Made by a program: the position numbers and the translations under genes. DNA of 60,743 nucleotides, counting the filler, from Sphacelaria rigidula (lineage: Eukaryota), in the NCBI GenBank assembly GCA_964200075.2. It is 4 parts of 4 records of this genome, joined end to end, with 100 filler letters (N's around TTAATTAATTAA, not from the genome) between each part and the next. Parts side by side here need not be neighbours in the genome. Positions count along the whole stretch, not along the records: positions 15,215 to 30,328 come from CAXNAA020001901.1; 3 more parts are not named here. One strand, given 5' to 3'. Of the stretch, positions 3,043 to 55,157 are shown piece by piece. The notes under the pieces were generated by a model. The model was not told the origin of the DNA. It saw only the letters and a list, made by a program, of their open reading frames with translations, and made no database searches. The first letter of the stretch is position 1; each line of letters opens with the position of its first letter.

Positions 3043-3307
3043 TGGAGGCGAACGGGGAAACAGAGACACCTGTCGACCTGGCTAGAGATGACGCGGAAGG
3101 GCGGAAGGGGCCACTCATGCAGCCGCTACGAGGACTGCGACAACATGGCCACCCAACGGTGGTGTACGTGAGCGAGCTGACGCAAGCTCCACGTTGGGCG
3201 GCCATTTTGTCGGAATCCTCGTAGCGGCTGCATGAGTGGCCCACTTCCGCCCTTCCGCGTCATCTCCAACCAGGTCGACAGGTGTCTTGGCTCCCTCGTT
3301 CGCCCCA
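3043..3307. repeat. Long foldback hairpin (~120-bp arms, ~25-nt loop); MITE-like or hairpin RNA
   Basis: GGCGAACG...GACACCTGTCGACCTGG...GCCACTCATGCAGCCGCTACGAGGA...CCAACGGTGG is mirrored by CCACGTTGG...TCCTCGTAGCGGCTGCATGAGTGGC...CCAGGTCGACAGGTGTC...CGTTCGCC. Confidence 0.9.
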
Positions 3308-12306: not shown

Positions 12307-12851
12307 TGGAAGTAATGTGTTGATGGGTGCGGGTTTTTGTTTGCCAGTTTTTTCGCCATTATCAGCATGAAGGTACTACGGTATTTCCTATTGTAGCCAA
12401 TTAGTGGTGGGTATCCGTTGCTTTTTCGGACTATCGCTCGATGCCACGTGTTCAATCCATGCCCGCTGACGGTCGTTCTATTTCAAAGCTTTGTTGAGAC
12501 CCATCAACATGTTGTGTTTCCAGGAGTACTAGACTTTTTTGTTTGTTTGCTGTTTTGTCGTTTGTATATATTGTATGGTCGCCTAGAGCCAACTTACTTT
12601 TGCTATTGTATCACCTTGTGCCGGAGGTTCCAATGCCAAGGTCTACCCGTAGAGTCATCCTGGTCCCATGATCCACCACGTTTTTAGTGTCCATTCTAGA
12701 CTTTGTTGTGGTCGCGCTACTTAGCGTATCTAGTAGATGTAGTGATGTCTTCGAATCCCTCTCATATCTCAGCACCCTGGGAAATTGAAAATATCGGATC
12801 AGCTCACTGAATTTTCTCTCGGGAGCAGCATGTACTTTCGTTTTGTATTTA

Positions 12852-13261
12852 AAACGGGATTTTACAATTTGGGGATGGATTATTTGTTGGGAATGAGAAC
12901 CCGGAGAATTAAAATCTTCGAAACATGGTTCCATTTCTGCACTTGCTGGTAGCTATTGACAACTACTGCACGCCATACAAATTTGGATTCTGGAAATCGA
13001 AATGTCGGGGTCCTAGGTGAAAAACCAATTTTGGGGGATTTAGGTGATGCGATCGGACGCCAAAATTGGTTTTTCATCTAGGACCCCGACATTTTGGTTA
13101 CCGAAATCCAAATTCGTATGGCGTGTAGCAGTTGTCAATAGCTACCAGCAAGTGAAGAAATGGAACCATACTTCGAAAATTTGGTGTGGATACGAAGATT
13201 TTGATTCTCCGGGTTCTCATCCCCAATAAAAAAAACATTCCCAGTCTGTAAAATCCCGTTT
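12852..13261. mobile_element. Foldback MITE (~185-205-bp inverted arms) with TA flanks, Tc1/mariner-like
   Basis: TA|AAACGGGATTTTACA...TGTAAAATCCCGTTT|TA. The arms pair along their length around a ~25-nt loop; the right arm carries a ~20-nt insertion. Confidence 0.85.
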
Positions 13262-13809
13262 TATTTGCCGAAGGTCGCATGGCACTGCTGCAAACTGACG
13301 CGCGGTGCAGTATGTCGGCTCACGTTGAGTAGTGCTAGGTCGGAGTAGATGGTGCACTTCATGTTGGTAACGAAAGTTATCCTCTTCATTTGACATCTCG
13401 TTTTCCTCGGGCAGCTTCTTGTTTTTATTATCTCTGCTGTCCGCCCCGAATATTTTTGTCGGCCAAGTTGCCTAGTCCGTTGGCGTTTTCCTGCACTCAG
13501 TGCCACAGGTCCGTAACATAGACCCCACTTCGCCAGCAGGAACCACTTTTCTTTCCTTGTTCTTTTGTTTCACTATAAATTTCCCGTGTCACAGATCAGT
13601 CAGTAGTGGAGGTAGAGACTGTCTTGGTGACACAAGTGGTGGTACAATTTTCCCCCAGGCTCCGATATGTTGTTGGGTCTTCGTCAGCGAAAATAGAAAA
13701 AGTGTGCCATTTCATTGAGATGGGTTAGTCACCGCTCGATCGATTGACTCTCGACAGCTGATCTCATCCCACGGAGCTACTCTTGCGCCACTCGATGTAT
13801 CTCCGTGTA

Positions 13810-15114: not shown

Positions 15115-15214
15115 NNNNNNNNNNNNNNNNNNNNNNNNNNNNNNNNNNNNNNNNNNNNTTAATTAATTAANNNNNNNNNNNNNNNNNNNNNNNNNNNNNN
15201 NNNNNNNNNNNNNN
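15115..15214. other. Artificial contig-joining linker
   Basis: N44-TTAATTAATTAA-N44; the 12-mer places stops in all six frames. Confidence 0.97.
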
Positions 15215-15335
15215 GGCACAAGCCGGGAAAAGCTGGTCATGCACGTGCTGCTCAGTACAGTACTTACTATCGTCATTATCCATCTGATCAGGGGGGTACC
15301 TACCCATCCAAAATGGGGTACCCCCCCACCCCTCG
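15215..15335 (+). repeat. Dispersed repeat, copy 2 (see 4750-4870), at a contig start
   Basis: Homology to 4750-4870. Confidence 0.8.
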
Positions 15336-16126
15336 CCCATATTGAGCTTTTCGGGAATTGGGGGCAGTGAACGCCGTATTCCAGTCAGTAAGGCCCCTTG
15401 CTGTAATGGCCGGGATGGAACAAATGAAAAATGAAAATACTGGAACAAGACGATAGTCGCCACGCTCTTGTCCGCGACGAATGTTACAAAGGAAACCTTC
15501 TACGCGCACCGCAAAGGGACAGTTGAATAAAACAAAGCAAAATAGAACGCCCACAAACTTAGCACCACTGTCGACAGGCTACTCATTCCCGGTCACCTGC
15601 AATTCATCACTGGCGGTTTCGCCATGCACGTGTGCCATCGATTCCGAGTAATCGTACAAGCTCGACGAGAACACAGCAAGTGAAACAGTTTTACTTGATA
15701 CAGAGCCACAATTCCAACCGACAAAAAAAAATCCTAGATTTTTCCTCGCCGGGTTATTTCACTTAGAGATAATTTCGGAGATGATGTCATGATTGAAAAC
15801 AGCTACCATGGCTAATGCCATGTCCGCAGCCGATTTTTTCGCAATCAGAGCACCAGCCGAAGGTGTCGAGCAATCCGAAACCAACCTGCAACTTGGTTCT
15901 TACAAGCTTCAACTGAAAAAAGGCGAGACACCCCCTCCTTTCCCCCGTCAAAAAGTCCGACCGAATTGACAGATCCACCCCGTGACGTGATTCACGTCCT
16001 CAAGTCCTTGCGCTCCAAAGGGCGATGGATAGCACCAGCCGTCGAACGAGGAATATCGGCCACTCAGATTTCTCCAATTTTCTTCGCCCAATAACAAAAC
16101 TGCATTCCAATTTACGTCATGTGCGT

Positions 16127-19100
16127 CTAGTGCGTGAATTGCCGCCGATCCCCTGCTGCCCTTTGTCCGTAGGGGTTCGTGGCACTAAACGCATGCCCGC
16201 CACCTCCACCCCCCGGGCTTTTTCTCTTCGCCTTGTCTTTTTCCTTGCCACCACCTCGCCCCTTCTGCCCCCTTGCGCTCAGCTTGAGGTCCACCTGCAT
16301 GAAGGGAAGATGACGAAAAACTGAAATATTTTCCAGTACCGGAGTCCCACAGTATCAACCTCTGGCATGGGTGAACTTTGCGACAAGGCATTATTGCTGG
16401 CGCCAAATTAGCGATTGAAGGATTTGGAACCCATGCACGCTGCTCGGACCTTCCAAAACTGTAAAATCCGTCATCACTTCTCGACCTCTGTTGTAACGGG
16501 TGTGCATGCCATGCACTGGAACAAATGGACCGTTTTCTAGTACGAAGTACGACGCATCATGTAGATACCACGAGAGCGTTCGGTCAACATGAAACTTTAC
16601 AATCTGACTCGAGACACAAAGCGGGCAGGGTTACCGAACATCAACCAACATGCATTGTGATCCGGCTATCGTCTCGTTGCACTCACCCTCGGGGGAACAG
16701 CGAAACCAAACGCCCTAGCCACCGCCTGCAAATCAAGCTCGTGGACGTCGTAGATATTCTTGAGGGAGTGCGACGAATACGCGAGGAGATACGATCGGTA
16801 CGCCTGCTCGTATAGACAACAAAAACGCACGTTGATTGAAGGCACGACGTGACTGCTGATGCATTGAAAGTCATGTATCTTCTCCCATGATTCCACGGCC
16901 ATGGAACACATCAAAATGAACATCAATATTGGACGCCGTGACACAATCGTGCAACATATACACTAGCGACTTCACGCTTTACACCATGACACCAAGCTGA
17001 CGATACAGAAAAAAACAACGCGCCTCTTCCAAGCGTTGCGGCGGCAAGTGTGGTAGTGCTCAACGACAGGGTGTTGCTCTTAACTGTAAAAATGTAATGA
17101 CAAGTAGTTATAAGACCGTTGCGCCCACATGGCCGGAGACGTCGCGATAGTCGACCCATGGTCCCGCACCCGCCTGAGCGGCAAAGGTTGTATGGTTATC
17201 GGTCATTGTTGCTCACCTCACGCGCAGATTTGTTGAGGTAGTAATTTTTTTCAATCAGCCGAGCGAGCTGCGCTTGGACGTTCGCCACTTTCTTCACCGG
17301 AAACTCGTATTCGTTCAATCTCGCCTGTTGGGGTAGGGTGTAGGATGTGCACCGCCAGAAAGAGAACAGGCATGGTACTTGGCGTGAACAAGCTTCTCTG
17401 TCTCGAGTGTTACACACCATACGAAGCACTTCTTTGGATGAAGGATATGTACGGCACTCGTCACGTCCCGACTGACACGATGAACCAGATGTTTTTCATG
17501 CATTGGCGACCAGTGCTTGAATTCGACAACATCAAAGGTGGGCTCATTGAAAGCTTCTAAATCAAGGGAGACGAAGCTCACCTTCGCGGCTCTGAGATAT
17601 CGCAGGAACCCAACCTCTTCCGGAAGGAGAAAGAGCAAAGCCCTGCAAAACCGCGCAAGCCAAAACGGACCAAAAATAATGCACGCGAGTGGCTTTTGAG
17701 CACGCACGTCGATGGAGACGCAATACCGAGCGCAGAACGCGCGGCAAAAAAAATAGTTGCCAACACGACGGTCCACTGACGCTTTAACCGCTGTGAGGCG
17801 GTTGCAATTGTATCATCATACTCGGACAGGACTGCTCCTGCGGAACGACGGCATTATCACAAGTGTTGAGATGTACGTCAGATTCACCTTCCCTTAGAGC
17901 TCGGAAATGGTACCAGTTATAACTAGCCATTATCATTATAATGGTAATGATGGTAATGGTTATATGAAAAAATTGGAGATTGGTTTTAAACCATCATTTA
18001 CCGTTACCGGCTTTAGAAGCCATTACTGGCCAAGTACGATTCATACAACCCTATAAAATTGGCGAAACTTTTTCGTGTCTTCGAGCTCTAGTGGAGCCAA
18101 ATTGCGTGAAAACCTGCCTCCGGCACGGCGCCTCCACTGGGGCCCTCCGGGGGCGCCTCCGGCTGGACCTTCTCTACCGGGGAGAGATTTTTGGCTCGCG
18201 GTTGCGGCCCCCGATGAACAAACCATTATGTATAATTTAACTGGTTGATGAGTGCGTTACGCGTAACCACTCAACTGGTTAATGGTTAGACAAACCATTT
18301 CCGAGCCCTACCTTCCCTGACCGCTCTGTCCCCTAGCCGTTCGCCCAACCCTGTGTATGTATTCTGCAGTTTGATCCGGCGGGTCGTATTGAATGATCCA
18401 GTCCACTGAAGGGATATCAAGCCCACGCGCGGCCACATCCGTACAGAGCAGGACTCCCGTGTCCTGAACGTGACAAGCATATCGGAAATTGTGGCACAAC
18501 TCGTCGGGCTTGCGGCAAAAATGGTCTTCTTCTGCCATCTACACCCTATATTCCACATCCATATGGAGCTTGTGAGAGAGAGATCGACTGCGTGCTGGAT
18601 CCGTCTCGTGGCAGGCTTCACCGAGAGACAACGTTTCCAACGCTTGCCGCATGATACACAGGTAGATCCTCGCGTAGTGCTCGGTTCAACAGCAGACCAT
18701 GTTGGCACACACGACGAGTGTACAAAATAAAGGATTAAGAACATCAGTGAAAACTGTGATGAACAATACACGTGACAGAACTGCCTTGACACATGTGTTG
18801 TCACCGAAGCTCATTTCGTGTGATCGGGGGACTCGCCTCCTCCAGTGCCAACCCTACTTCATGAACAAAACTTTTTACTTCCGCATCATGCCCATCAAGC
18901 GCGCAATGTTCATGTAAATCATCGACCCTGTTCACACATGTACGCTTGACACCGGGGGGAAGCTCACCTGTCGGCAGAACTGAAAGAACGAAGTGGTGCG
19001 CTTCTGTTGTTTTTGTTTCCCATGAATGTCCATGACAGGGACGTCGATGTAGTTCAGAAGCTCCGAGTGGAACTTGACGGAGTTGCACGACGAGAAGAAT

Positions 19101-22100
19101 ACCTGATGAGCCCCGATCATATAAACAAGAACAAAAACAAGGCAAGTGTCATTGCCATTATCATCATCATCACGACTCTGACACACCGAATACCACCAAC
19201 TGGCGCAAAAGCCAGCCGTCAACGGGTCAAATATTCCGAGCGTCAAAATATCGTAGTACCCCGTGGCCGCCCAGCCGACTTCAGTGTAGGGAGATGAGGT
19301 GTAGGCTGGCATCCTCCTGTTTTTTCTTGTATTAATCCTCACGGCTGACAATGGTGTTTCTCTCTCACCATGATCTTCTTGTGGCGATTCTTCTTCAGGA
19401 ACGTGAACAGGAGCAAGAAGCGCTTCTCGCTCGGACATACCACATACCCCTGCCGAGACAAAAAAAGCCATGTGGGAGAGGGAGAGAGGATGATTAGATA
19501 TTGCACCGCACCGAGTGCACACGTACATGCAAATGAGCAAACAAGGCATGCCACGCCGCGGAATCGACCAACCCATACCCATAGGTGAAGAGCCCTGGAT
19601 CTGTGTGCACGCGCAAGTCTACATCTCGGGGCTCCATTACACTATTTTTCACCTAACCTTCCACCGAACGTTTCGAGCAATCCAAAAAAATGCTGAGATC
19701 ACACGACAGCCCTTCCAAAAGACATTTAGACAAATGTGAGCCTGCTTCAAAATTCCGTTGTGGCACAGGGGTGCACTCTAGTTCCTAACGTGTCCACAGA
19801 AATCCCGAAACAAGGGGCTTAAAAAGCATTCAAGTATCAAAAGATACCTGCTCCAATCCATCCACCGTGCTCTCTTGCTCAGAGTCGTCTACACCCACGT
19901 AAGCAGGTTTATTCTTGATGGATAGTCGGGCCAGATCCTCCACCTGAGCAACGAGTACGTGTTAGCAGTATGCGCGGTGATTTTGTTGGTCCAGTGGAAC
20001 ACATGAGAGTACACTGGGCGTCAAAGTATCTTCGGAATGACACTACATAGCAGTGCTTCCCGCACAGCTCCTACAGCTTTTCTATTGCGATGAGACACCC
20101 GTCACCGTCACTCTCATGTTGCAGCCTTAAGAGTGCTTTTGCCAACGGGAAAGCATACCAGGGAAGCGACAACACCGGATCTCTTTTGCCACGCCTGCGA
20201 CACGCACGTGCACCCATCGAAGCTATCAAAGAGCTATATTTAACCCTTGACATGAAAAGCGCGGCGGCGGCGACGGAGGATTGCTACCATCTTTCATACA
20301 AGATATTTCTTTACAAATGGAGCTGCTCAATGACGCCGTCTAGCGACAGTGCAGGTTGCACAGGACGTCTGACCTTTTTTGTCTGTGTGGCACTGAAGAG
20401 CATGGTTTGCCTCTCCTTCGGCAAGAGCTTGATGATCTGATGCATTTCTTCCTCAAATCCTTGCTCCAAGATGCGATCGGCCTCATCTATCACAAGCATC
20501 TGCATGTTGCGGAAAAGAAAGCCCTTCGTGTTCTGCAGGTGGAGGGCACGATGCCACGATAGCGCAGGCACGACGCGGGCAGTGAGAGTTGGCAAGGGCA
20601 CACTTGAACGAGCGCACGGTGCGGGAACTGACTGGCACAAGTGTATGGGTTTTTTTAGCAACGGCATGACAACAAAATGTGCCTAGGTGGCCCTCAAAAA
20701 CGAGTGCACATGATAGTCGTGCCGTGTGCAGAAACATCATGAAAAGTATTCGAGGTCAACAAATTATGGGCAGTAACCGCGAAACATTCATCATACTGTG
20801 TCCTTCCACGGTGGCTTATTTGCCTATATGAAAATCCATCACGCCTACATTCAACTGTAGTAGCAGCACCTGAAGGTGGTCAAGAAGACGACCAGGCGTG
20901 ACGACGAGGATGTTTACTCCTTTCACCAGTCGCTCCGCCTCCGCTGTGGAACACGAATGCCATAGGACAATCAATGCAAATGAAGGAAAAAACAAAGCGA
21001 AGAGGCGAACATCCTAGAGTTGGCAAAGTGCAATAAGTTGGCAATAAAGTGGAGTGCCATTCAAGTCGTTGCCGAACGCAGCAAAGGATGGCGTCGGCGT
21101 CGTACAGACCACTTTCAGCGTGGGAACATGTCGCCGAAATAAGTACACATTATTAACTTTCGACAGAAGCGATCTCATGCCGCCTTGGGAAATTGCGACA
21201 TCTCCTCGAGGATTTAAGGATATGTGCCAAAGCTCGCAGGGGAAACATTGACCATGACCCAACTACTCAAGAATATAAGGTTCTGGAGAGGGAACACCAG
21301 CAGCCTGGCGCACCCATTCCATCAGATATTGTATACCTTCGAGGCAATAAAAGCACATACCTCCTTCGTTTTTCAAAGGAGAGAAGATGCAGTGTCTCAA
21401 AATTAAACCGAGGGCGCGCCGCCAATACTTCTACAATATTATGGTGTACATTTTTTGTACCTCTGCGATTTGCTCCTCCGATGAGCAGGCCATGCGTTTG
21501 CTTCATGTTGCCGGCCTCGACAACGTCCCTGAGTACCCCGTACGTCTGCAACGATAGCTCTCGAGTAGGGCTTATGATTATGCAGGCTGTCCCGTTCCTG
21601 TGGGACCACTTCACCTTGTGGAGAAGCTGCACGAAAATAAGTCGGAACCAAAGGGGGCGGCAGAGGCACATGTTGAGGGCATGATTAAACTTGTCTGGAG
21701 GCGCATTCAATGCGACTGACTTCAACGCAAGGAGGCGATCTAAACACTATGCCTGCCAAAAGACATGAAATTACATGACTATCGTTTCCATCCGTGGGCA
21801 GATCGTGCCATGAGATTACATTACTTGTATGATAGTATCGTATCGTGGTCAGCGGTGGCGAGAGAAGATCACCATGTACTACAACTTATCTGCCGTGAGA
21901 GTTTCCGCTGCTTGCGTTGTAAGGATGGTCAAGTGCAATGCCGAATATGGCTGCCTACCCTGGTCGTAATTCTTGCGGTGTTAGCATTCACCGTTGTGCG
22001 TCATTGTACTGTAGACAAACAAGCTTACACAACGTGTATTTCACCTCAAGAACTGGCAGGAGGAAGGCAAGCGTCTTTCCCGATCCTGTCTTGGCAGCAC

Positions 22101-25100
22101 CCACCAAATCTTCGCCTGCCAGCAACGGGGGAATGGCCTGAGCCTGCAGCACACAGCACAGTGTCAAGTCAAAACAAGCAGTACGGAAATCTCGTCAATG
22201 CAGGCCTACCCTGACTCCTGTGACCGCATCCTCGGTCACTATAACAAGGACGCGGCTGTATTTGGTGCGCCTTCGTGAATTTCGGCACCTACAGTTATAG
22301 ATCACATCGAACGGTTCCCAATTCCAAGCATCATTTCCACAGGCTGGATTGGCTGAACTCGACGGGAGATGGAAAATGAAACAGTCGAAACGGTCAGCAT
22401 GACAGCAGCACAACAAAAGTACATGCTCATCACCCGAAAACATAACTTGCCCACTCGACAGATGACTGACCCACCGCCGCTCACACCCACCTGGATTTTG
22501 GTTTGCATCGTAAATTTCAATGTGCGGAGCGCAGTTCGCATGTTGTCTGACAGCGGGAGATTATCGAACTTTTCGCTCGAAAAGAAGCCTTTCTTTGTTC
22601 CCTCTTTTTTTTCTTCTGCGACCCCGTCCACATCTTCCACATCTTCCGCTGCTGCCTTGCTCGCTTTCTCCTCCGTCACAGGTGGGCGCTTCCCTTTCTT
22701 GACCTTTTTCGACCCGGGTACTGCAGGCTCGGCGTCATCTCGCTGACGCTTTTGTGCCTTCCCCTCAGCCTGCCGTACGCCGACACATGCAGGTACGGAG
22801 TGATATTTATATCCAGTGTGAACTCAATTGCGACGAGATAAGGCCAACCATCGGCGACGATTCACACAGCCAGGTCCAAGGGGTGGCCTGACTCATATCT
22901 CGAGGCTCCTCTCCCTGGTCCCCACACACATCTCTTGATGAGAAACGAAGACCTTCCGTATTGATCCGACGGCAGCTCTAAACCTCTAGCAACGGCGACC
23001 TATCAACAGCCGAAGAGCATCTTGGAGGATTATCACCAGTAGCCGATCAACGACATCACAAGACATACCAAGGAAGCAAAATGTTGGCTGCTCAGTATGC
23101 ACATCTATGGAGGTCACAACAAACTACATCCTGCAGTTTCACGGTGGTTCAGCCCCGCCAACTGTCGGCAAAATATTTCACAACCACAGGAAAGTATCGT
23201 AGTACGGAGTACAATGAAAATGCATCATAGGCACTAGTCTGTATGCGCAACACCCTCCGCAGCCAGAAGGAGCTTCAGGCATAATGCGGATGCAGCAGTG
23301 ACATGCATCGGGAATGTCCACAGCAAGGACTTGCTTGTGGTGACACTGCCGATCGCTCCTGTCATGTGCTGCCTAGATATAGATAGCATGGGTGGGCAGG
23401 CAAAGCACGCTTCTCGTCGGTGGGAATGTATACCGGAAACAGTTCCGCCCCTTGATCACCGTCAACTAATTAACCTGCGCTAGAATCTCATACAGAAAGT
23501 CCGACGATAGGTTGGGTAGGGTATGTACTTTTGAATACTTGGGTAAAATACGCGAGTGTTTACTCTACCCAAGATTTGGGTAAATTGGATACGACCTCAA
23601 ATACTCTGCAAAAATGTTGGGTAAGCACTCTCAGCAATACTTGTGTCTAGAGTATCACCTGGGTATGACCTCAATACTCTACACAAATTTAGGTAAGTTG
23701 GGGACGATCTGAAATACTCCACGAGCTAGGCCAGCAGTAAATCCCGCATTTGCATGTCACACCATAACTCATCAACTTTACCAAATCAAATCAGCCCGGC
23801 TTGAGTATATCGGTGTGACCTGCATACCAACATGGTAACGCACGCGGCCGCCACTGAATGGGAAAAAAAAAATGTACTGCATAATGCATCACCTAACCGA
23901 CGGAACGAAAAAAAGGGAATCCGTCGGGATTTGAACTCGTGACCTCTACAACTACTGGAGTCAACTGCATCACTTGGATTAAAGGAGCGCAGCCGTGCCA
24001 CACGAAAGGTTGGATGCTGCGCCAAATTTCTGGAATTTTTCGCCGAAATTGTACTAGGATCTCCTCCACACAAGGGCGCACAACTACACCTGGGATGCCC
24101 CGTATTTCTTTATTTTCACGGAGTTGAAGCATGTTTCCGGTTGTTGCATAAACTTTAAATCGCTCTAACTTCCTGTTTTTTTCTTGGCATCTTCGGGAAG
24201 GTTGTGCCTAGTGATGATATAAATGTTGTGTCAAAATTTCAGCGCCCAACGCTTCGGATTATCCACCGCCCGGCCCGGATACATTCGCAAATCACTGTCA
24301 GCTCGCCCAACTTGTACCCATTTTTGGGGTAAGTTGGGTACGACTTCAATACTATACCCAAATCTCGGATAAAGCCGTGTCTTCGCACATGATTTTCGAT
24401 CGTGAAGAAAATGCGGAGGAATTGATTCGAGCTAATTCGCTCATTTCTCGCGAATTGGGTCCAAGCTAATTTGCAAGCTTTCGATCGTAAAAATACAGTG
24501 CAATTACTTTTTCACTCGTCTACAGTATAGTGTGCCTGAGTTTGTGTGTGCGCGTGTTTCGTACAATAGGATGTGAAAGAGGACCAGGCAACGTGCAGTG
24601 CAGTCAGCGCAGGACCATCTACATCCTCTGCCCACAGTGCGACGTGAAAAGGACTTGAACAGCGTGCAGCTTTGTATTGCCGGCACTACCCATGAGAGTA
24701 CGCAAGTCGGTCGTTCACCATACCACGTAGTTCCATCACCGATCCCTACCATGAAACAAGATGCTCAAGTTTTCGCTCATATAAAATAACACATCATACC
24801 CAACTACGGCAGTGTATCCATCCCTGTGCCTAACTCGTGCTCGATGCTACAGGGCTGCAGTGATAGCTGAGAATGAGTTGAGTGGGGTTTGCATGGTTCT
24901 GTGAACGAGTGGAATCTGGCGTGGTGGTCTGCAAGATAGGAGACAGGTGCCTCTTCGTACCTTTCCTCCGCAATGCTTCGATCAAAAATGGTCAGGGGCA
25001 GGTCATTTAGGGTATGCACTTTTGGATACTCCGGTAAAATACCAGGGTATTCCCTCTGCCCAAGGTTTGGGTAGATCGGGCACGACCTCTAATCCTCCAC

Positions 25101-28100
25101 CAAATTACTGGGTAGGCACTCTCAGCAATACCTGGGTATAGAGAATCACTTGGGTATGACCTCAATACTCTACCAAATATTTTACCAAATTTTGGGTAGA
25201 TTATACGACCTCAAATACTCCACCCGAATTTGGGTCAGCACTCTTAGCAATACCTGGGTATGGAGGATCACGTGGGTATCACCTCAATACTCTACCCAAA
25301 AATTGGGTATGTTGGGTACGATCTAAACTACTGTGTACCCAAATTTTGGGTAGATTGGGCACGACTTCAACTTTCTACCCAAATGTTTGGGTGCAAGGAG
25401 TACGAGGTTTCAAAGTACGGAATATTGGGTATACCCCTACTCGACCTGCCCTTGAAAAAATAACTTCTTCCCGCTGTTGGGACCGAGATGTACAACCTTG
25501 GGTCAGGTTCGACTTTATTCACCTCGTAGGAAATAAAAGTTTCAAGGTCTGGACGCTGACAGAACATGAACCCCCTTGGAATGCTCCCGCTATCCCCGCG
25601 TCAGAAGTCTCATATTAGTTCTTCACTTGAAAAATAATAAAACATGGACACGACAAGCCGCATCCATGAGTACGGAAGGCCAAGGGGGTCTATTCAACCA
25701 CAAGTCAGGCACACACAGAAAAGTGTCACCCCGAGAAAAAACACAATTTCCACCCGTACGGGTTTACCGTTTTTTCACTCTTACTCTTACATAGAAGTTG
25801 CTACTGTGGTGCCTCGGCTCACTGTACAGCCTTGAAATGGAGGTGCTTCGGTCCGCTGCACTGTACTGTGCGGTTGTGCGTTCAACACGGAACTGAAAAA
25901 AAAACATCAGATTGGGGCAATACCTTGTTTGTGGGGAAATTTGTTGCTATCTGCACACTTTTTTCGCCTGAGTGGCATCTCAACTATGTTGTTTACGGTC
26001 CAAATTGGCGAGGGAATCAAGCTGAAACCACCAGCAACAGCTTACGTTTTGCATCAGCCCGTCTATGGTACACCACGGTGCGGGTAGTGCATGCAGTGAA
26101 GATATACACTGAACTTTGTTCAAGGCACGACGAGGTACATTTAGCTTAGGGTAATGCGATTCCGTTGCCCCGGGGATCTCAGAATGCCTTGGGATGGGAT
26201 AGGGGATGGCGTCGGCGCTATGATTTGACAAAGACGAAGGCGCGTTACGTTAGCCATCCCCTCCTTACATGTGCGCCAGAACGGGCAAAATCTGCCTCCC
26301 TATTTCGGCACCCCCTGTTCGTCACGCGAGACAAAATTCAAGGCGACACAGAGCAGCATGGCCTCCTGGGTGGTTCGACACCATACGCACGTACACACGT
26401 CGTGCGGGCTCGACTAACTTTCATGTTCTCGTCGTTTCAAATCTCTCCAGATAGTAACCATCGTAAACAGTTACATTCTCTATTGTACAACCGTACAGCG
26501 GTTCATTGCGGACAGTACGGTACCATGGAACAACATTAGTAGTACAGACAAGCACGCGGCGGGTTCGTCCTGGCTGTTGTTCGTGAACAACAAATATTCA
26601 CCGTGGATCGATAGTAGCAGTAATCGTTTCAAGTACAGGACAGTACCACACCCCGACTGACTCTCGTTACCGAGTCTGTAGTCGGCACAACCACGTACAG
26701 TACATCAGTACATTACGGTGGGCTGCAGCCCTCCTCGTTTCAGGCTGTAAAACAGAACGTGAGTCCAAGCAAAACAGAATTACATCTTGTGGCACAAAGA
26801 ATAGTCTTCTTAAAAATAGTGTGGGTCACACACACAGGGAAGTGGATCCGTTCGGGTGGAATCAGCGATTGTGGGTGCGGTCGGGTCAGTTTTGTCAAAT
26901 CCTAGCGCGCTCTGGGTAAAGAGTGCCTATTTGCACTCATGTCGCATCATCTTTGATCGGAAGACAAAGGTCCCATACTACAAATTGTCAGTCTTTGAGT
27001 TCCCCAGTACAGCACGTCGCGTTTCTATACATATTAGAATAAGATCGCGTGAACCGCAATGAGGTATACAGCCGTATGCGTTGGTTTGTTGACCTAGCTA
27101 TCTTCGCCCTTCAAGTCTGCAGGAACTCAGCTCCAGTAGGAAGGGATCGGTCAACTGCTTGTAGCACATAGTGTCGTCAGCCGAATGACAACTGCATGCG
27201 TTCGGCAATTCTGGAGCAGTGAACCAACGCTTCACCTTTGACTTGCAGGGTGAGCCGGGTATTGTTCGAAAGGCCTACTCACAGGCAGGTTTCTCGCCGA
27301 TGACCGTAGGACGTGTGCATTCGTAGTCGGTATCGAGAAAGTGCAATAAACGTCAACACGAAACTGGTCCGAGATGGTGTTAGGCGTGTTTTGGGGACCT
27401 CGAACTAACTCCGTGCCAGGCTGCAATATCTGCGCTGGAAACCCGTTCACGTGAGCCTTCACTCGATAAAAACTATTTCCGTGTGGACAACCACCCCACC
27501 AGATATACAAACAAAACAGTGCCTGTACATAATGTAGATTTCCGCCACCTCTACCTTAAATAGGGAGTGGGGTAGTATGCAGCGGTATGCTCAGGTGTTA
27601 CACGATGTAGAAACATCTGGGTGACTGACAACAACAAATTACTTCTTCATGCTGTAAGGGGGTGGTATGGGGGGCAACTTCGCTTATCAGCCGATTTCTC
27701 CTCGCTTCTAGTTTCCAAATCAACTTCTCTGAGTCGCGGTCCCCAGGCGCCAACATCAGGCGGACCAGTTACCTTGGGCATGGGCAACACATGAAATGTC
27801 CTGCGGCGCGATATCAGCCAAAACGCGGGCTGCGATCGCCGGGCTGGTCACTGAGACTGCGAACTCTCCAAAAATCCGACTGATCATCTACACCATCAAC
27901 AACTTGTTTTCAACCATGTGCCTCGTCGCCGCCTTCCGTGTAGGCTTCACAACATGCTGCTTTCTCACGTTGAGCCCAGCGGAAGACCACTTGGGCCTGC
28001 AGTTTAAGGCAACGATATAAGTACGCGGGCCAGGCATGCTTACTGCACAACCCTGTACTGTGCTGGATGGCATATTTCCATGCAGCAATGGCCTGTAAGT

Positions 28101-28597
28101 TACGTTTTTGCACGGTTTCCGATTTCACCGTAGAATAGCAAGATGTTGCGCTGCTGGATGACCGACCGCAGCACAGCACTGTCTGTGGAGTAAAAGCATC
28201 ATGTTTGGTGTCGGTACCGGGCAATGTCTGTATCATACCGTATATCTGTGTGGAAAGCGTTGGCCTCCACAAACAATGGAAGTTTAGGCTGTCTCAGTCA
28301 TTTCGAGGGTTTGGAGCTGAGCACAAGAGCGGCAGGCATCAAGCATCACGTACATAATTGAGAACGGCGTTGCGGTGTACAAGCCACCGACTGTTACGTA
28401 CAGTAGAGACTGTCCTGCTCCACCTCTATCGATGCTGTTACTGATTTACTACAGACCAGTCGCATTAGCAACCTATTTTGCCTTACCTTAACCGGCACTA
28501 GCTGTTCCTCATCAACCGCAGTACCCTCTTCATCTTTCACTCCAACCGATTCCGAGAGCTTGGTTTTCGACGACACCTTCCCCGGCGACTTCTTCAT
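16127..28597 (-). CDS. HAS1: ATP-dependent DEAD-box RNA helicase HAS1/DDX18, ~601 aa, 14 exons
   Basis: Exons: 28597-28487 (putative first, GCCATG...K|GTAAG), 22769-22491, 22143-22045, 21626-21461, 20943-20870, 20532-20374, 19943-19848, 19449-19369, 19102-18968, 18463-18312, 17642-17582, 17324-17217, 16803-16687, 16294-16127. All GT-AG and phase-consistent (1806 nt). Motifs [51 protein letters not shown]1-type C-terminus ([31 protein letters not shown]). Confidence 0.95.
17895..18310. mobile_element. hAT-type MITE, 416 bp, with perfect 8-bp TSD, sitting on a HAS1 splice donor
   Basis: TIRs TAGAGCTCGGAAATGGT and ACCATTTCCGAGCCCTA match 16/17. TSD CCTTCCCT at 17887-17894 and 18311-18318. Subterminal AATGGT/ACCATT repeats and a GC-rich core. 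Confidence 0.93.
23515..24372. mobile_element. Older copy of the 24993-25454 element, split by a ~590-bp insertion
   Basis: 23515-23722 aligns to ~25005-25200 and 24314-24372 aligns to ~25335-25392 (GGGTATGACCTCAATACTCTAC / GGGTAAGTTGGGTACGAC motifs). Confidence 0.7.
23830..24290 (-). mobile_element. Dispersed repeat with a tRNA-like module (second family)
   Basis: Homologous to 51950-52410 (GGTAAC.CACG...CTGAATG...AAAAAAATGTACTGCATAAT...GTCGGGA.TTG.ACTC.TGAC...AATTTCAGCG.CCAAC). The minus strand carries B-box-like GAGTTCAAATCC. Confidence 0.7.
24993..25454. mobile_element. hAT-like non-autonomous element with internal tandem repeats, in HAS1 intron 1
   Basis: Ends CAGGGGCAGGTC and GACCTGCCCTTG match 11/12. 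Interior repeats GGGTAYGACCTCAATACTCTACCCAAA-like units. No TSD seen. Confidence 0.7.
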
Positions 28598-30269
28598 GGC
28601 CTTTGACTATGTTGTGCTCTAGCAGAGAACGCTATAGAGACACCGACGACCAGTAAATCCGCGGCCGCTGCTGATTATTGTCATTGTCCACACTTGACAC
28701 CTGGTACTTTTAATCTTCTTCCAGGATCCTACGTGTACATATACGTGTACATAATAATTCGTCATGGTGGGACGAGGGAGAGGTTCCAAGACTGTGGGAA
28801 GTACGATGTTGTGAAGACTATCCACAAAGCGAAGGACAGGACTAAAATGGAGTGCGGGGGGCATGCTGTAAGAGTAGCACGCGCGGGCGAAGTGCTCAAA
28901 ATCATCGCGGAGCGATTGAACGCTCACGTGACCGTGAAAAACTCCTCGAGGGACAGTCCCCAGTCAGAGGTGAACAGCGAATGAGCCACGGCCGACATGG
29001 TGTCCATGATACGGATTACAAGAAGACTCTGCTGTGCATCCGCTTGATAGAGCTCGTGAAAACGTACAACTCGGCCGATCGCACCGTACTCTCAGCTGTG
29101 CTTGCGCGGTTTGATGTACCCGCGACATTATGATCGAAGACACCCGCGATGGGACAACTGGTCCGTGTGGTATGTAGGCATGGACGATGATCACTCATGA
29201 GGAATCCAAGCAAATCGGTGCTGTCACGCATACCCTTCGGGGAAACGGAAGACGGGAAACCCCCCAAAATAGTTTCAAGAGGGTCGGGGGGCATGATGCC
29301 GTCCATGTGAAATCATTTTTTGTTACTTTATGTCAGGGAAAGACTGTTTTAGGGTTGAAACCATTTCTACGTCCAACCCAATTTTCTCATCCTCTCTTGG
29401 CACATCGACGGGCATCAAGTTCCAAGAGAAATGACAGTTTTTTCTAGGTTCAACCATTCTTGACCGGTCTTGAACAAAAATGCTAATTTGGCCAAAAAAA
29501 TGCGGCCACCGGAAAACCCGAAGTTGTCCTGGAACTGTTCCAACGAGGACCGCAAATCATTCCAAGGTGTTGAACTTTGCTCAGCTCTCTTGTAGGGCTT
29601 CAAACAACCACGAATAACCAAAATAGATTTTTTACAGGACTTTTTTTGTTTGCCATACGTTTGAAGCGGCCGAACTCGAGAAAAAAAACTCGGACAAGGT
29701 CCTGATGGCTTTATTCTCATTTTGCCCTTGCGATACTTCATGCCCAATTTCAAAGCACAACTCTCAAAACTGAGACGCGAAATCCAGATTTATTTGGTGT
29801 ATACAGTGTCTTTACTCGTAATATATTGGGTTGATAGTATAGAATCTTGTGCACATACGCCGTACCTCTAGATGGATAACGAATCAGGTGAAGACGAGGG
29901 TATCAATCGTCCAATCGTTTCCCCGTGCTCTAAGAGATGTTCACACCAAAGATCCCCATCATCCGCTGCACATACCGTTTGATATTTCATACAGACTTTA
30001 ATACGGTAAATACCATATCTCCGTACGGTATAGGAATTACTTGACTTGGTGTTCAATCAACGAGAAAGAATTGACGCAGGCTTTGAGGAAATAGACATCT
30101 TCCCCTTGGTTATATAGTTAATTATATAGCTCTTTGGGGACCACGGCCCAATTCGTTTGTGTCGATGGCATATGGCTATGAGAGCTTAAATCCGTTCTCA
30201 AGATGGCCCAGCTTGTAGATTGATCGAGCGTTGAGGTTACTGCTGTTGCTGCGAGAAACACTCTGTGTG

Positions 30270-30328
30270 TTGTGTGTGTGTGTTGTCGTCCCATTTATTC
30301 TGGGCACCAGTCTACACCTTTCGGTATA
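30270..30328 (+). repeat. High-copy dispersed repeat at a contig end
   Basis: TGTGTGTTGTCGTCCCATTTATTCTGGGCACCAGTCTACACCTTTCGGTATA; near-identical reverse complement at 45676-45733 and a diverged copy at 32860-32940. Confidence 0.85.
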
Positions 30329-30428
30329 NNNNNNNNNNNNNNNNNNNNNNNNNNNNNNNNNNNNNNNNNNNNTTAATTAATTAANNNNNNNNNNNNNNNN
30401 NNNNNNNNNNNNNNNNNNNNNNNNNNNN
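30329..30428. other. Artificial contig-joining linker
   Basis: N44-TTAATTAATTAA-N44. Confidence 0.97.
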
Positions 30429-34059: not shown

Positions 34060-37000
34060 TCATCGGCCATGGCCCTCCACCGCACGCTTAACCGCGAGAG
34101 ACAACTTGGACGGCAGCGAGGAATTGTCAGAGTACACATCAACCACGGCTCTGCCCGTATCAGCCGTCACAGCCACGCGGATGAACACCCTGTCGGACAT
34201 GGAACCCGCCAAGGAACACGCAGAAAACCACAATTGCTGCTCCTGCTGCTGCCCAGCGGGGTCACGTGTCTGAACCGCAGCAGCATTGACAGCTCGGAGA
34301 GTTCGTGCGGGTATTCGTTGAATGTCCGCGGGGGCAACCTGTGCGCAAAATCGTATACCAGGAGGGGGTGTTGCTGCTGTTAGGGAGGGGGATAAGTTGT
34401 CAGCTTTTCCCAGTGTCTCGCTGGGTATCAGGGTGTGGGGGGTGAAGATAATTATTGAGTTGGTGTAGGCAAAGTTCATGTGGCAGCTCCGGAAGGGCAT
34501 GACTTCGCACTTATTCATGGCTGAGGATGGTTACATGAACGTGCCGTGCATGTCCAACTGTGTGTACCACACATGAGTGTGCAGCCCCAGCTATCATGGC
34601 TGAGACATGGACAAGAGTCACTGTCGGGTCTGACGATTTTAGGCCCCGGAAATGGTGTTTTGTAGTTCAGGGAAACACTCGGAAAACTCCCTAGGACAGC
34701 ATGGTACGAGTGATGACAAAATTACCAGATGAGGAGATAACGAAATGGAGTAGGGCACTTTATGGTACGGGGTGCTGGTATTCGTCAGTTACACTACAGT
34801 ATGTGCTACTAGTAACTGACGACAAGTCCAGGCTTTTTGTTTATTCACGTCCATGTTATATGTATATAGTGCTGTCTACTCAAAACTGCCTTAAGCTCGG
34901 CTGCACGTCGAGATACCACTATCCAAGTGTATCCTATGCACCCATGCAGCCAGTGCTGTCCCCACAGAGCTAAAATGCACCATGTGGGTGTCTGTAGCAA
35001 GCGCTTGCAAGTGCTCTTTGTCTGCCGCTGCTGCGGGCGGGGAGCACGTGCCTACAACGTGCCTACAATTTCCCACTACACGTTCTCTAATTTACGTGGT
35101 TGCTGCCTGCAACATTTTGAATTAGCTGGCACTTCATACTCTTCGAGTGTCGCTCTTCGTATCCAAGTCGTTGACTTGTGTTTCTTTTGCTGTACTACAT
35201 GAAAAATGGATGGAGTTCAAAAAAATATGGTGCGCGCTACGCGATTGCTTGACCCTTTGACGGGGAGCCCTGTCCCGGAACGGTTCAGGGGGCTAACAGT
35301 CCCTGTATATCCAGGGGTTTCCAGGAGGTGGGGAAAGTGGATTTGAGGTGTGTGGGGGTACCTGGTCACACATTAACCGAAGCTTCCAAACTCAACCATT
35401 TCTACCTGAAGCTTTCAAAGAAAAATTCTGCGGCACCCACCAAGCCGGGAAGGAACACATACAGCGTCTCCTCGAAAATGAGGTTGAACATTAAAAAGAG
35501 GTTCAAACCCCGTTTGGATTTTCCAAAAGTCTGTCAAGACAGTTTGAAAAAAGTTTGGTTCTGTTAAAAGCCAAGTAGGTGCGGCGACGTGCACCCAACT
35601 AACGCGGTGTACACGTGTGTAGATAACGATGCCACCGGAGAAGCAATAGCGGAGAGGAAGCTTCTCACCCGTTCCCTTGTGTGTCTTCGGTCGGCGATTC
35701 CTCATCACTGGAGAAAATTGCACACCCTGGACAACATATTAAATTGCAAAAAATGTACTGCGTACAGCATGGAATCTTTTGTATATTGCAATAGGCGCAA
35801 TAGTCGATACTGTACGCCATAAACTTTTTGATTGTATTCTCATGTCCAGGGTGTGAGAAATTGGCATTATGTTACCACCACATACTCACTTCACCATCCC
35901 TTTCGTCGGCACAAAAACGGCAGGCGAATTGTAATTGTAGTGAACTTCCCCCTATAAGATGCGGCTTGGCTTCCTGCATCTTGATTGATGCATTCGTGTC
36001 TCGTCTGTGGCGCTCACCAACGCAAATATGGATCCCTTTTTGCCTCTCGTTTTGGACAGGACGTGCCGCTGCGTGCTACAAAACACGTCGTCGAAAAACA
36101 GGGCGATGTTCCCGTCTTCGCTATCCCGTTGTCATGTGCACGCGCGAGCAACGATCGTTCCGCGAAGATCCAATCGCGCGCGCGTGTGTGTAGGGGGGGG
36201 TTGCCATTTATTTTGCCCCACGCTTGGCACAAGGACGGTCGTACACATTCGGGTTGGGGGAATGTCCTAGAGATCACACGCCCACGGAGCGTTTCTTGCC
36301 GTGCGGAGTGAAACAGGATACCTTTACCAGTGACTTAGCTGCTGCTGGCGTGGCCCACATGGGGGCTGGCATACTGTAATCTGTGCTGCAGCGTGTCTTA
36401 CGTGATGTACAGTCGATGCGCATCATTGTGCTGGGTCGTGTCTTTAAATTTCCGACTCTGCGAAGACCATCGCAAGCTTTTGCTTGACGCGAGATATGGC
36501 TCTACCGGGAGCAGTGGCGTTCTTACAGTATATCAATTACTCGCCGGCTCATTGTGGCCCACGCCGTCAAGCGCTGACCAAAAAAGTATTGTCTGAGATA
36601 GATCAGCTTTCAAGAAGCGCAGCTGAAACAAGCCCAGACAATTCGTTGTTACTGAGTGCCTGTAGAATTCCGTTTCTGTATAAATTACTGATACAAACAG
36701 CTTCTGACCTTCAAACTAATTTGATACCCTCAAAACGGCTGTCAACAGTTGACAAGAAGCGCTCTCCTCCGCTCCCGTCGGATGTGATATAAAACGATGC
36801 CACCCTTCCGTCAAACGTATGGGGAATTGTTGTATAGCGATTAGTATAGAATCCAAGGGAAGTGCATTCGTTCATGTTCGTAGTAGAATGCTTGCTGCTG
36901 GGAACGCTTCGCAGGTTAAAAATTGGGAAAATTCATTCGTTGAAAACTGCTGGTCCTCGACGATTTTTCCTGGGGCTCCAAGATAGTGTGGCATCGTTTG

Positions 37001-40000
37001 TTTTCTTCAATACGTGATGGGACCCGAGGGAAGAGCAATTTCTCAGCTTTCGACAGCCGTTTTGAGGGCTAGTTCCAACATCAGAATCCATTTGTACCTG
37101 TCGGATTATACAGAACCAGAATTCTGCAGGCACTAAGTGACAGCGAATTGCTCAGGCCTTTTTCGGCTGCGCTCCTTGAAAACCAACTTATCTCAGACGA
37201 GACTCTTTTGATCAACGCTGGACGGCGTGGGCCACAAATGAAACGGCCAGTAGTTCATATGTTACGAGAACGCCCTCGTTCTCAGTAGAACCATATATTG
37301 CGTCAGGGAAAAGCTTGTGATGGCCTCCGCAGAGTCGAAAATTTGAAGACACGACGCATCACAATGTTGGGCGGGAAATGGGGGGAATCGCATGGATTTG
37401 TTTTCAGTACCCCCCCGCCCCCAATGTGTCCAAACGTGGTACAAAGTTGTTGAACAACTTGCACAAGGTTGGTCGCGAGTGGGTTTGAAGGGATCGCAAG
37501 CTGGTTTAGACGAGATCGGCCCGTGCCCTTACGGTTCACATTTGATCGATGCCCGGATATCGATACCGCCCTCCCTACGGGAACCGGCCCCTTATCGAGC
37601 GTAAAGCTTGCACATAGTGCTGCTACTGCATATCCTACGACAAAAAACGAATTCCTCATCCTTTTTCTCTTTACACGGGCTCCCCGATACCGCCCTCCCT
37701 ACGGGAACCGGCCCCTTATCGAGCGTAAAGCTTGCACATAGTGCTGCTACTGCATATCCTACGACAAAAAACGAATTCCTCATCCTTTTTCTCTTTACAC
37801 GGGCTCCCGACCCATGCCCGCGAGACCCGTGCTAGAATTAAAAATATGATCTCACACCTCCCCCAGTGCACCCTCAATCCTCTTCCAGATAATCTTCACG
37901 TAGACGCCGTGTCGAGCTCGAAGTTTGACTCTCATCTACCGAGCTAACTTTTCCAAACAAATTGCGAACATGAATAAATGAAGTATACTCACGTTTCACT
38001 CGTTTTTGGCGAAACGTGACTGAAACGTTATTTGTTCTCCAACTGCCCATGCAAGCATCGCGATAGCCCACGGGTAGTTGATGCTTTGTTCGCGACGAAA
38101 CAGACGCTGATCCCCATCAGAGAGCGACTGCTGCAGATCCTTGGCGTTTACCACCGGGGCTCATCATCAGGGCCATGTTGAAACACAGGTGTAACTTACC
38201 CGTAGATGCAGACCGGTGCAAGTCAACGTGGCTGGGGCGGGCAGAGGGCATGGAAACGCGCCTCAAACACACACAAGGACCAACACTTGTAATTCAGCTC
38301 GCACAACCTGCAACTCCAACCTCGTGTTGAGACGATGAAGTGCGGAACAGATAGTCTGTGTTTGCCGAAATAAAACAAGTGCCGCCGAGCCCGGTGGTCT
38401 AATGTTTCGACTGTCGCCATGAGGGTGAAAAGAACATGGGTTCGATTCCGGCCAGATGCGTTATATATTTTTTTCCCTTCGTCGAAAACATGAGGGCGTG
38501 GGTAGACAACAAGTAGTTGACAAGTCTGCGTGACGAGAGATGACGCGCCGGGGGAGTGCTGACCCAGGGCGCGGTATCAAAATGAAATGAGTGTAACGGG
38601 GTTAGATGGGTTATTCCCTTGAGACCACAGACTCATCCCGAGGAAGGGCAGGGGTTCAGAGTGTGCCAAACAAAAAGAAGATCCTGCTCAACATACCGTG
38701 ACCATTCGTTGGACTCACCTGGCATTGCGCAGTCTCTTTGTCCAGCTGGCCAATTGAGGCTAATACTCGCTCAAACTCGGCTGTCGACACCGGCTGAGGG
38801 AACACCATCTCCTCTGCGGGGGGCTCCACGGAAACCATATAGCTACCCTTGTCCGTTTTGAGCTCGAAACGAACCTGTTGGAAGACGTGGGACCTTGGAG
38901 CATGAGGATTGCTGTGGTGAAAAAACACGGCTTACTCTCAACACGTGACGTGCGACACAGGAAGAGTGAGGCATAAAGCATCAAAAGTGAACACCTACGC
39001 TTCACACGAAATTACAACCACAGCGATGTTTTCCCTCGCAACGTGTGTGCCGTCATGTCGGTCGATTTCGGGAACGGCGCACATACAAGGTTCACATGTA
39101 GTAGCATACGTGTCACGCTGTTGCGGGAACCTTGCTCCTGCCCAACGTCCGTGCACTGTCCAATCCACACGTCATTCCGCACGAGCGACAGAAAGCATGA
39201 AACCGTATCAAACTCACGTGTACACACATATTCCCTGTCGAGCTCTTGAACGCGTTATTGGCAGCACAAGACGTTACTACAAAAAAGTGAACTTGAAATT
39301 TGGGGAAACGTGTCATACCAGAACTGGTCCGATGAGAACCAACGGTTGAAACCACCTTCCCGCACCCGTCATGCCTGGCTGCCTTCGGCCAAAATTGAGA
39401 AGGCCGCTGTAATCGCGCAGCAGGAGGCATAAGTACCCACCTCCTTAGCTCTCCCGCCAAAGTCGATCCCCAGGTTAACATCGACCGTGGCCCCAACACC
39501 CAGCACCTGAACTTCCGGGAAGGTGTTCATCTTCGTTCCATCCCGAGGGGCTACCGCCCGGATTCGTCGGATCGGCGTATCGCGATGGTTGCTGAGCGTA
39601 AGCCGTAGAGTCAGCACGGTCGTCGGTCGGGAAATCAGGTCGGTCCTCCCTCTCGTATACCGGTAATCCACCTGGAGACCGCTGCTAGTCTGGTGGCGCA
39701 GCATCGTAGACGGGAAAGACACGCTCGTGTCTAGCTCCGGATCCACCGCAGAGTGCTGGCTCAGCGTACTCGACCCCGATCGCCCAAGCACCGTCGGCGG
39801 CGGCAAGGCCCCAGGTCCAGCCATCCCTGGTCTCACGGATCCCCCGCCACCGACACCAACGCCGCCTCCTCCACCCAATCCCATCAACCCAGCCGCGGGT
39901 CCCTGCACCCCCGCCATATTCAGCGACTTCAAGTTCAGTCCCTCTGTTCGGGATCCTGGTTGCGGGGAAGCATTGTCGTCCGTGTCTGCGACGCTCATTC

Positions 40001-45539: not shown

Positions 45540-45639
45540 NNNNNNNNNNNNNNNNNNNNNNNNNNNNNNNNNNNNNNNNNNNNTTAATTAATTAANNNNN
45601 NNNNNNNNNNNNNNNNNNNNNNNNNNNNNNNNNNNNNNN
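45540..45639. other. Artificial contig-joining linker
   Basis: N44-TTAATTAATTAA-N44. Confidence 0.97.
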
Positions 45640-54500: not shown

Positions 54501-55157
54501 CTGTTGCATCATTCTTTGTGCATGCAGTTGGGCCAAGATCGCAGAGGTCATGCCTGGGCGCACTGCCAAGCAGTGCCGTGAGCGCTACAACAACCACGTC
54601 GATCCGGCTATAAAAAAGGACAAGATATGGACTGCTGAAGAAGATTCACTGGTGATGAAGCTGCACGCCGAGCACCACAACCAATTCGCCAAGATTGCTC
54701 GCTGCATCCCAGGTCGATGCTATGACGACGTGAAGAACAGGTACGTGCATGAGAGTCTTGTAAGTGTTGAATTTTTTCAAGAAATGCAGTGCCCGAATTG
54801 CAAAATCCTCAATCGAGCAGGCTTATACCTCATCAGGCAAGAACATTACGATTCCTTCTTCTCAACAACTGCCGTTCGTGTCTGCGTAGGTTCAATCTGC
54901 TGGTCAAACGCCGGCAGTGTGCCCGGGTCAATAACCCGGGATCATCCTCTGCCGTGTCTACCGGAGAAGCTTGCACCAGTGCCAGCGCGCCGACTGCGGG
55001 ATATGTTTCTTCGTCACATTCCCCGGCTGTATCCCCCGGCGAGAACCCTCGGGGGCTAGCCATACCAGATAGTGACCGGTTGGTACAGCAAGCTCCGAGA
55101 GGCGGAGTCAAGCGGTCGACGTCGGAAACCCTGAGTAGCAGGGGACCTGTATTCTAG
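48504..55157 (+). CDS. MYB transcription factor with three C-terminal MYB repeats and an upstream Cys/His motif, ~829 aa, 11 exons
   Basis: Exons 48504-48827, 49284-49580, 50601-50734, 51128-51761, 52692-52838, 53059-53163, 53379-53550, 53827-53879, 54274-54416, 54528-54740, 54890-55157; all GT-AG and phase-consistent (2490 nt). Repeats: DWEPEETRQL...WPSIARFFPTKSSIQCLLHW; TWGAEEDARL...WAKIAEVMPGRTAKQCRERYNNHVDP; IWTAEEDSLV...FAKIARCIPGRCYDDVKNRF. The 5' exons are low-complexity and less certain. Confidence 0.85.
51950..52450 (-). mobile_element. Second copy of the 23830-24290 repeat family, in a MYB intron
   Basis: Homology to 23830-24290; the right part also resembles ~45910-46075. Confidence 0.7.

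Follow-up and report, generated by a model that had tools for sequence, protein, structure and literature searches.

Insertions of Ac/Ds and dSpm in maize are spliced from host transcripts, with hAT termini supplying splice sites and the insertion being tolerated; these are insertions into exons, their removal is imprecise and the products are altered. Here we describe, in a stretch of 60,743 bases of DNA from Sphacelaria rigidula (the window), a 416-bp miniature inverted-repeat transposable element (MITE) that lies on the donor of intron 10 of a gene for a HAS1/DDX18-type DEAD-box helicase. HAS1/DDX18 is an essential ribosome-assembly gene and, unlike in the maize cases, the insertion has altered neither the exon boundary nor the product. 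It is likely, and we hold it with good confidence, that a hAT-like MITE inserted on the intron-10 donor and that the resulting chimeric donor is paired with the original acceptor.

Several described systems share part of this arrangement. In class 12 of the Polarella glacialis introners, the 5′ splice site consists of the terminal G of an NNAGG target site duplication (TSD) and the first base of the element, while the 3′ site comes from the TSD (10.1101/2020.10.14.339549). The HAS1 copy is built in the same manner, since its donor is made from the G of an AGG-ending TSD plus the first element base and the second TSD copy offers AG^G (the caret marks a splice boundary), and the parallel with introners drawn in the original prediction is therefore apt. 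As far as the available text of that report goes, class 12 elements differ in that they land in exons, where they make whole introns by the hundreds, with a TSD of 5 nt and mostly GC donors, whereas the HAS1 copy is single, has a TSD of 8 bp, landed where a donor was already present and is spliced to the old acceptor. The introners of Micromonas and Aureococcus are also MITE-like, with terminal inverted repeats (TIRs) and TSDs, and take one splice site from the element and the other from the TSD; in the available parts of the reports they are whole introns by definition (PMC11282704, PMC9860276, PMC12130899), whereas here 245 nt of the intron are older single-copy sequence.

The [D1,2] stwintrons of Xylariales resemble the locus in another respect, as the inserted unit interrupts the donor after G1 and before T2 and carries near-terminal inverted repeats that are able to pair into an RNA stem. 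Their one-step removal as a single canonical intron has been seen, and is termed missplicing in the portion of the report available (PMC12403724). The present unit, unlike a stwintron as described there, starts with TA rather than GT and cannot leave as an internal intron between G1 and T2; a nested route, if there were one, would have to be recursive, of the AG^GT type. With Mar of Drosophila willistoni, a hAT MITE, the element has in common the 8-bp TSD, the short TIRs and the lack of coding capacity, although the TIRs of Mar start with CAG(G/A)G in the accessible text (PMC3517528) and those found here with TAG(G/A)G. A literature search, with subscription journals and supplements outside it, brought up work on introners and stwintrons but no account of an existing donor that a MITE had rebuilt in this manner, and the locus is probably a one-off, one instance of a kind of event already known.

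The rebuilt donor and its use

The features on which the argument depends are the following.

15215-30328: contig with the insertion, the second of the four in the window, 15,114 bases
16127..28597, minus strand: gene for the HAS1/DDX18-type DEAD-box helicase, with 14 coding exons and 13 introns, all GT-AG
18312..18463, minus strand: exon 10, ending just past helicase motif VI, with its last codon split as AG^G (phase 2)
18311..18318, minus strand: upstream copy of the TSD, AGGGAAGG, 8 bp, comprising the last 7 exon bases and the G of the present donor
18310..18311, minus strand: chimeric donor GT, with G from the TSD and T as the first base of the element, reading AAG^GTAGGG
17895..18310, minus strand: the element, a non-coding, hAT-like MITE of 416 bp from a high-copy family
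18294..18310, minus strand: 5′ TIR, TAGGGCTCGGAAATGGT on the gene strand, including the in-frame TAG at 18310-18308
17895..17911, minus strand: 3′ TIR, TAGAGCTCGGAAATGGT on the plus strand
17887..17894, minus strand: downstream copy of the TSD, AGGGAAGG, whose final G and the following T17886 are the GT of the displaced old donor, AAG^GTGAAT
17643..17886, minus strand: single-copy remainder of the original intron, which with G17887 makes up the 245-nt pre-insertion intron and ends ...TTTTGCAG
17644-17643, minus strand: acceptor AG of intron 10
17582..17642, minus strand: exon 11, where the C-terminal extension begins

Chaining of GT/GC...AG boundaries from 28597 to 16127 reproduces, letter for letter, the 601-aa protein P0007, an unnamed protein product of Sphacelaria rigidula that was 100% identical over the exonic part when the exon adjoining the element was the query. 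Pfam assigns the domains DEAD (PF00270, 3.8e-14), Helicase_C (PF00271, 1.6e-16) and CTE_SPB4 (PF13959, 1.5e-15), the protein comes closest in the PDB to HAS1 of yeast and fungi and to DDX18 of humans, and the database relatives of the helicase carry the names DDX18 or HAS1. The identity originally given to the gene is thus borne out by its domains and by its closest solved relatives. At the protein level, colinearity over the junction extends to four brown-algal orthologues (Pylaiella, Ectocarpus, Undaria and Discosporangium), which read G-x-G-R^(A/S)LLFLLP there. Eleven of the introns are in phase 0 and one is in phase 1, the element-bearing intron 10 being the sole one in phase 2. All 13 acceptors are CAG, and the 12 other donors are GTGAGC (three times), GTGAGA, GTGAGT, GTGGGT, GTGAAA, GTAAGG, GTATCT, GTCAGA, GTGCTG and GTACAA, a range that takes in both GTAGGG, the new donor, and GTGAAT, the old one.

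The element is situated between the G and the T of the old intron-10 donor, so that the gene strand reads ...CGG TCA GGG AAG^GTAGGGCTCGGAAATGGT...[element]...ACCATTTCCGAGCTCTA AGGGAAG^GTGAATCTG... across the locus. Its TIRs, as given by a repeat finder, are 17 nt long with 16/17 positions matching (94% complementary) and lie 382 nt apart, and the TSD, perfect at 8/8, directly abuts the element on both sides. If the first T of the element is counted, the direct repeat extends to 9 nt (17886-17894 / 18310-18318), the ninth shared letter being that T on one side and the +2 T of the old intron on the other. We read the TSD as 8 bp since only 8 bp leaves the inverted ends in register. The old donor persists 424 bp downstream of the new one, and the frame of exon 10, when followed into the element, stops at the TAG at 18310-18308 (open reading frame (ORF) 18308..18538, ending ...GQGR). 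Sequence and repeat finder agree with the original prediction in every coordinate of the MITE, its TIRs, the TSD, the displaced donor and the TAG, and the in-frame stop that it foresaw upon retention of the element is real, since the exon ORF ends there.

The use of the element-made donor is seen in assembled reads. A run search returned four sequencing runs (X1-X4) that are near-complete or strong holders of the sequence, with shares of 0.77-0.93, and four more runs, RNA by guess, that hold 26-29% of the words, approximately the exon share. Contigs from two RNA-like runs (X6, X7) and from two DNA runs of different studies (X1, X4) were aligned to 16500-21500. One X6 contig of 2,552 nt (depth 327) and one X7 contig of 1,922 nt (depth 211) contain the same joint, 17641->18311, in which 669 nt are skipped with GT..AG at the ends on the gene strand. 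Since these contigs join 18312 to 17642, the donor at 18312^18311 is used and the element is absent from the main message, as had been proposed from the DNA. Eight more introns are spliced out at GT..AG boundaries in the two contigs taken together, and nine introns of the gene, the element-bearing one included, are thereby confirmed by spliced contigs; in the contigs of the DNA runs (X1, X4), these nine joints are absent among the joints listed. After splicing the frame is open and equals P0007, which means that the public gene model already uses the element-made donor.

The insertion is equally evident in the DNA runs. In X1, one contig covers 16500-17922 and so extends 28 nt into the element, and another covers 18281-21500, with 30 nt inside it; X4 has the same two contigs, with 9 differences in 1,423 positions and with 16 differences and 4 gaps in 3,220. 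Since the X4 sequence differs from the window in these ways, the insertion is common to two genotypes. A misassembly, which the original prediction had named as the finding that would undo it, is excluded for these junctions, as both flank/element junctions are present in the DNA contigs of two studies. None of the DNA contigs bridges the element, which is normal for a repeat. The 245-nt remainder is single-copy in the DNA, at depths of 27.7 and 31.3. Because of this, and because the empty site would read AGG followed by the stop TGA with the next coding segment 245 nt further on, intron 10 almost certainly pre-existed the insertion. The 245-nt ancestral intron (17643-17887) postulated earlier follows directly when the element and one TSD copy are removed from the sequence.

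The element and its family

The element is short and non-coding, is bounded by TIRs and a TSD and has many dispersed copies, as befits a MITE. Contig pieces at least 90% alike that lie almost wholly on the element number 1,800 in X1 and 2,024 in X4, and the summed DNA depth on the element is 8,500-44,000 against about 30 on the flanks, a sum that is not a copy number. The loose ends of contigs cluster at 17894/17895 and at 18306/18310/18311, the proposed ends of the element. The element therefore belongs to a high-copy family, and its ends are where they had been placed. At 18306, 35 of the X1 contigs end, and many members differ at position 4 of the TIR, giving TAG(G/A)G as the end of the family. 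At eight listed places (17925, 17978, 17980, 18167, 18176, 18187, 18257 and 18270), at least 93% of the family depth differs from the HAS1 copy, which means that this copy is not brand new.

The TAG(G/A)G start fits the YARNG rule for hAT termini. In the available text of one report, hAT elements are described by a TSD of 8 bp and TIRs of 5-27 bp (PMC3517528), and the TSD of 8 bp and TIRs of 17 nt observed here agree with both lengths. The duplication at this single copy (AGGGAAGG / CCTTCCCT) fits neither the Ac-type consensus nor the nnnTAnnn given for Buster (PMC3517528). The assignment of the element to the hAT superfamily is provisional.

A 90-aa ORF of the element, compared with proteins 49-158 residues long, found no relative among them, and Rfam gave no match over the whole 15.1-kb contig at E values up to 0.1. 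Two trivial tandem repeats are the only ones inside the element. No transposase domain was found by Pfam in the 10 searched of the 31 window ORFs of at least 140 aa. When up to 3 mismatches are allowed, the window contains the TIR motif 3 times, with 0.10 occurrences expected; a count as high as this came up in 0/100 shuffles. There is no second copy of the family in the 60.7-kb window, where only the HAS1 copy and a lone TIR-like 17-mer are present. This 17-mer at 34640-34656 (TAGGCCCCGGAAATGGT) matches the TIR with 2 mismatches, has no TIR partner in the interval read (34400-35400), and may be a remnant or chance.

Two further observations concern similar sequences elsewhere. A contig of the RNA-like run X7 (depth 145) joins 17960 to 18266 and skips 305 nt of the element; it is a shorter deletion derivative of the family, present in RNA from elsewhere in the genome at fairly high depth. 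A pattern scan with the 17-nt TIR returned 58 metagenome and 3 viral loci with one match each, and when the whole element was aligned to these 61 loci by BLAST no alignment exceeded 27 nt, so that they are chance matches and not family members. The longest alignments were 27 nt at 88.9% (L047) and, with the end of the element, 26 nt at 96.2% (L007, L030 and L035). Dense arrays of short hairpins built on GGCTCGGAAAT...ATTTCCGAGCC are found in the metagenome contigs L007 (973-1180), L030 (838-1054) and L035 (973-1180), and these are a separate repeat family, unrelated to the algal element.

Origin of the donor and competing explanations

We propose that a non-autonomous hAT-like MITE, from a family of hundreds of copies or more, inserted at the 5′ edge of the phase-2 intron 10, where the 8-bp staggered cut would have spanned the last 7 exon bases and the first G of the intron. 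Repair would then have duplicated these 8 bp, and the upstream G would have met the T of the element to form the donor AAG^GTAGGG at the old exon boundary. The spliceosome would use this chimeric donor together with the original acceptor, taking out 669 nt as one intron consisting of the element, the second TSD copy and the old 245-nt intron. The mRNA and the protein would thereby remain unchanged and the old donor would become a cryptic intronic site, while the upstream donor would be both the first to be transcribed and the sole one giving a productive message. Had the element inserted a single base further 5′, it would have stayed in the exon, which makes the present site the limiting tolerated position. 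On this sequence reasoning, it appears to be the 5′-most tolerable insertion position in an essential gene, and to be tolerated only since the element begins with T.

We infer that the intron is removed in one step, that the insertion was near-neutral and that it arose by chance and was allowed by selection. Introns, whose median length is 524 bp, make up about 46% of the genome of Ectocarpus and commonly contain non-autonomous DNA transposons (PMC12477816). At these figures, chance alone would put roughly one copy per genome at any exact intron offset if the family has about 1,000 members.

If correct, the locus is a natural example, with RNA support, of a cut-and-paste transposon that occupies a splice site in an essential gene and does no damage there, and it marks the limiting position for a tolerated intronic insertion. 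HAS1 function would be unaffected by it, the mRNA and protein being unaltered. It also shows the geometry on which dedicated introners rely to be present already in a MITE that is not specialised. Should the family form whole introns elsewhere, brown algae would show a step from MITE to introner, and would do so in a lineage whose introns are mostly ancient by published account, over 90% of them reportedly being shared with sister clades (10.1101/2024.02.19.579948).

A number of points weigh against this proposal. RNA status of X6 and X7 is deduced from their nine GT-AG joints, the label given by the tool being a guess, and the splicing data cover 15 of 42 joints at the level of contigs, in which rare variants are dropped. 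Minor use of the old donor is compatible with such data, and a two-step path from the same donor gives the same product, so contigs do not separate it from removal in one step. No DNA contig spans the interior of the element at this locus, so its 416-bp length and interior are those of the assembly. The pre-insertion state is a reconstruction, and the chance estimate assumes a copy number, which the summed contig depth does not give. A predicted RNA fold, which we record as a note and do not treat as evidence, pairs the TIRs in a 17-bp stem, and does so in the minimum-energy structure as well as in the centroid (z -2.65; 1/100 shuffles as good). Such a stem would bury positions +2 to +18 of the donor, and might hamper its one-step use unless U1 binds co-transcriptionally.

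Of the alternatives, the one that survives best is that 18311-17888 is removed first as a GT...AG intron of its own, regenerating the old donor, and that the 245-nt intron is removed afterwards. Since the TSD ends in AGG, its second copy offers AAG^G in the same register, and an AG^GT is indeed present at 17889-17886; the predicted 17-bp stem would bring both AAG^GT sites together, and introner classes with the same geometry have been published, on the available text of the report (10.1101/2020.10.14.339549). Against this, the internal acceptor ...CTCTAAGGGAAG^ is an AAG that follows the purine-rich CTCTAAGGG (...GAGCTCTAAGGGAAG^G), whereas 13/13 native acceptors are CAG after a pyrimidine-richer stretch. 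Furthermore, no intermediate is visible in the contigs. Neither 18312->17887 nor a DNA joint for the empty site is among the 15 of 42 joints listed, which speaks neither for nor against them. We therefore regard a two-step path as distinctly improbable.

An extension of this idea is that the element is a nascent brown-algal introner, with the HAS1 copy taken out first as a nested intron and other copies having made or remodelled introns, which we consider quite improbable. Introner status itself would mean that the family prefers, or is kept at, AG^G(T) and creates or remodels introns at many loci. By sequence logic, termini of the form TAG...CTA together with an 8-bp TSD would permit exact excision wherever the TSD ends in AGG, and the family is both abundant and found in RNA contigs. 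The bases flanking its members, as listed, give no hint of such a preference. Beyond the TAGGG end, the base is G in 17/55 (X1) and 16/68 (X4) of the contigs listed, against a G content of 24.6% in the window, and at the other end the flanking base on the plus strand is T in 41/97 and 41/91 of those listed, which is A/T-leaning and not G; these counts cover the rows listed, with 277 further rows outside them, and are weak evidence. In addition, only one copy lies in the 60.7-kb window, and the HAS1 copy is not a whole intron, since element and TSD leave 245 of the 669 nt to an older single-copy intron. What it does have of an introner is a splice site made from TSD and element, the G of the donor coming from the TSD and the T from the TIR, and its resemblance to an introner in function is thus confined to the 5′ end. 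A brown-algal introner-like system is accordingly very improbable.

It was also suggested in the original prediction that the displaced site might serve as a switch coupled to nonsense-mediated decay (NMD). If the choice between the new and the old donor were regulated, use of the old one would retain the element and meet the TAG, yielding an NMD target or a helicase cut short after motif VI and lacking the C-terminal extension. The exon frame does run into the TAG, GTGAAA among the native donors of the gene is similar to the old donor GTGAAT, and one X7 contig, at a depth of 2.5 (the mRNA being at 211), covers 17759-17914 and thus runs across the old donor into the element. That contig fits unspliced pre-mRNA or DNA carry-over equally well, however, and similar low-depth contigs occur in other introns, while 17888->17642 is not among the 15 of 42 joints listed. 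Moreover, any cryptic donor beside a stop yields such a by-product without regulation. Regulated donor choice is thus highly improbable, and from the purine-rich AAG context of the displaced AG^GT, recursive splicing or an NMD switch appears unlikely at this locus. An assembly artefact, with the element misplaced or the locus a collapsed repeat, has next to no likelihood, for although the DNA-run contigs break within the element without bridging it, two DNA runs of different studies contain the transition from unique flank to element on either side, and the RNA joint skips precisely from the exon end to the old acceptor.

Other features of the window

The 60,743 bases of the window consist of four contigs of approximately 15.1 kb, with artificial spacers of the form N44-TTAATTAATTAA-N44 at the joins.

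15115-15214, 30329-30428 and 45540-45639: spacers, features not being readable across the joins

Within the HAS1 gene, intron 1 (22770-28486, minus strand) is 5,717 nt long, about 10 times the size of the other introns. It contains a repeat at 25008-25223 similar to 23517-23722 (77%) and another at 23821-24075 similar to 51942-52203 on another contig (68%), and these are probably further transposon debris.

Elsewhere, 12850-13263 (414 nt, 77%) and 3047-3304 (258 nt, 85%) are each their own reverse complement and are foldback- or hairpin-like, and an inverted pair is formed by 36418-36806 and 36985-37372 (75%). Tandem-like repeats with units of about 85-170 nt and 75-88% identity are located at 815-1279 and 2024-2202. 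The third contig carries a gene for an AP-3 beta adaptin (AP3B1_C, Adaptin_N) at 39372-42919 on the minus strand, and the fourth a gene for a Myb-domain protein at 54496-55056 on the plus strand.

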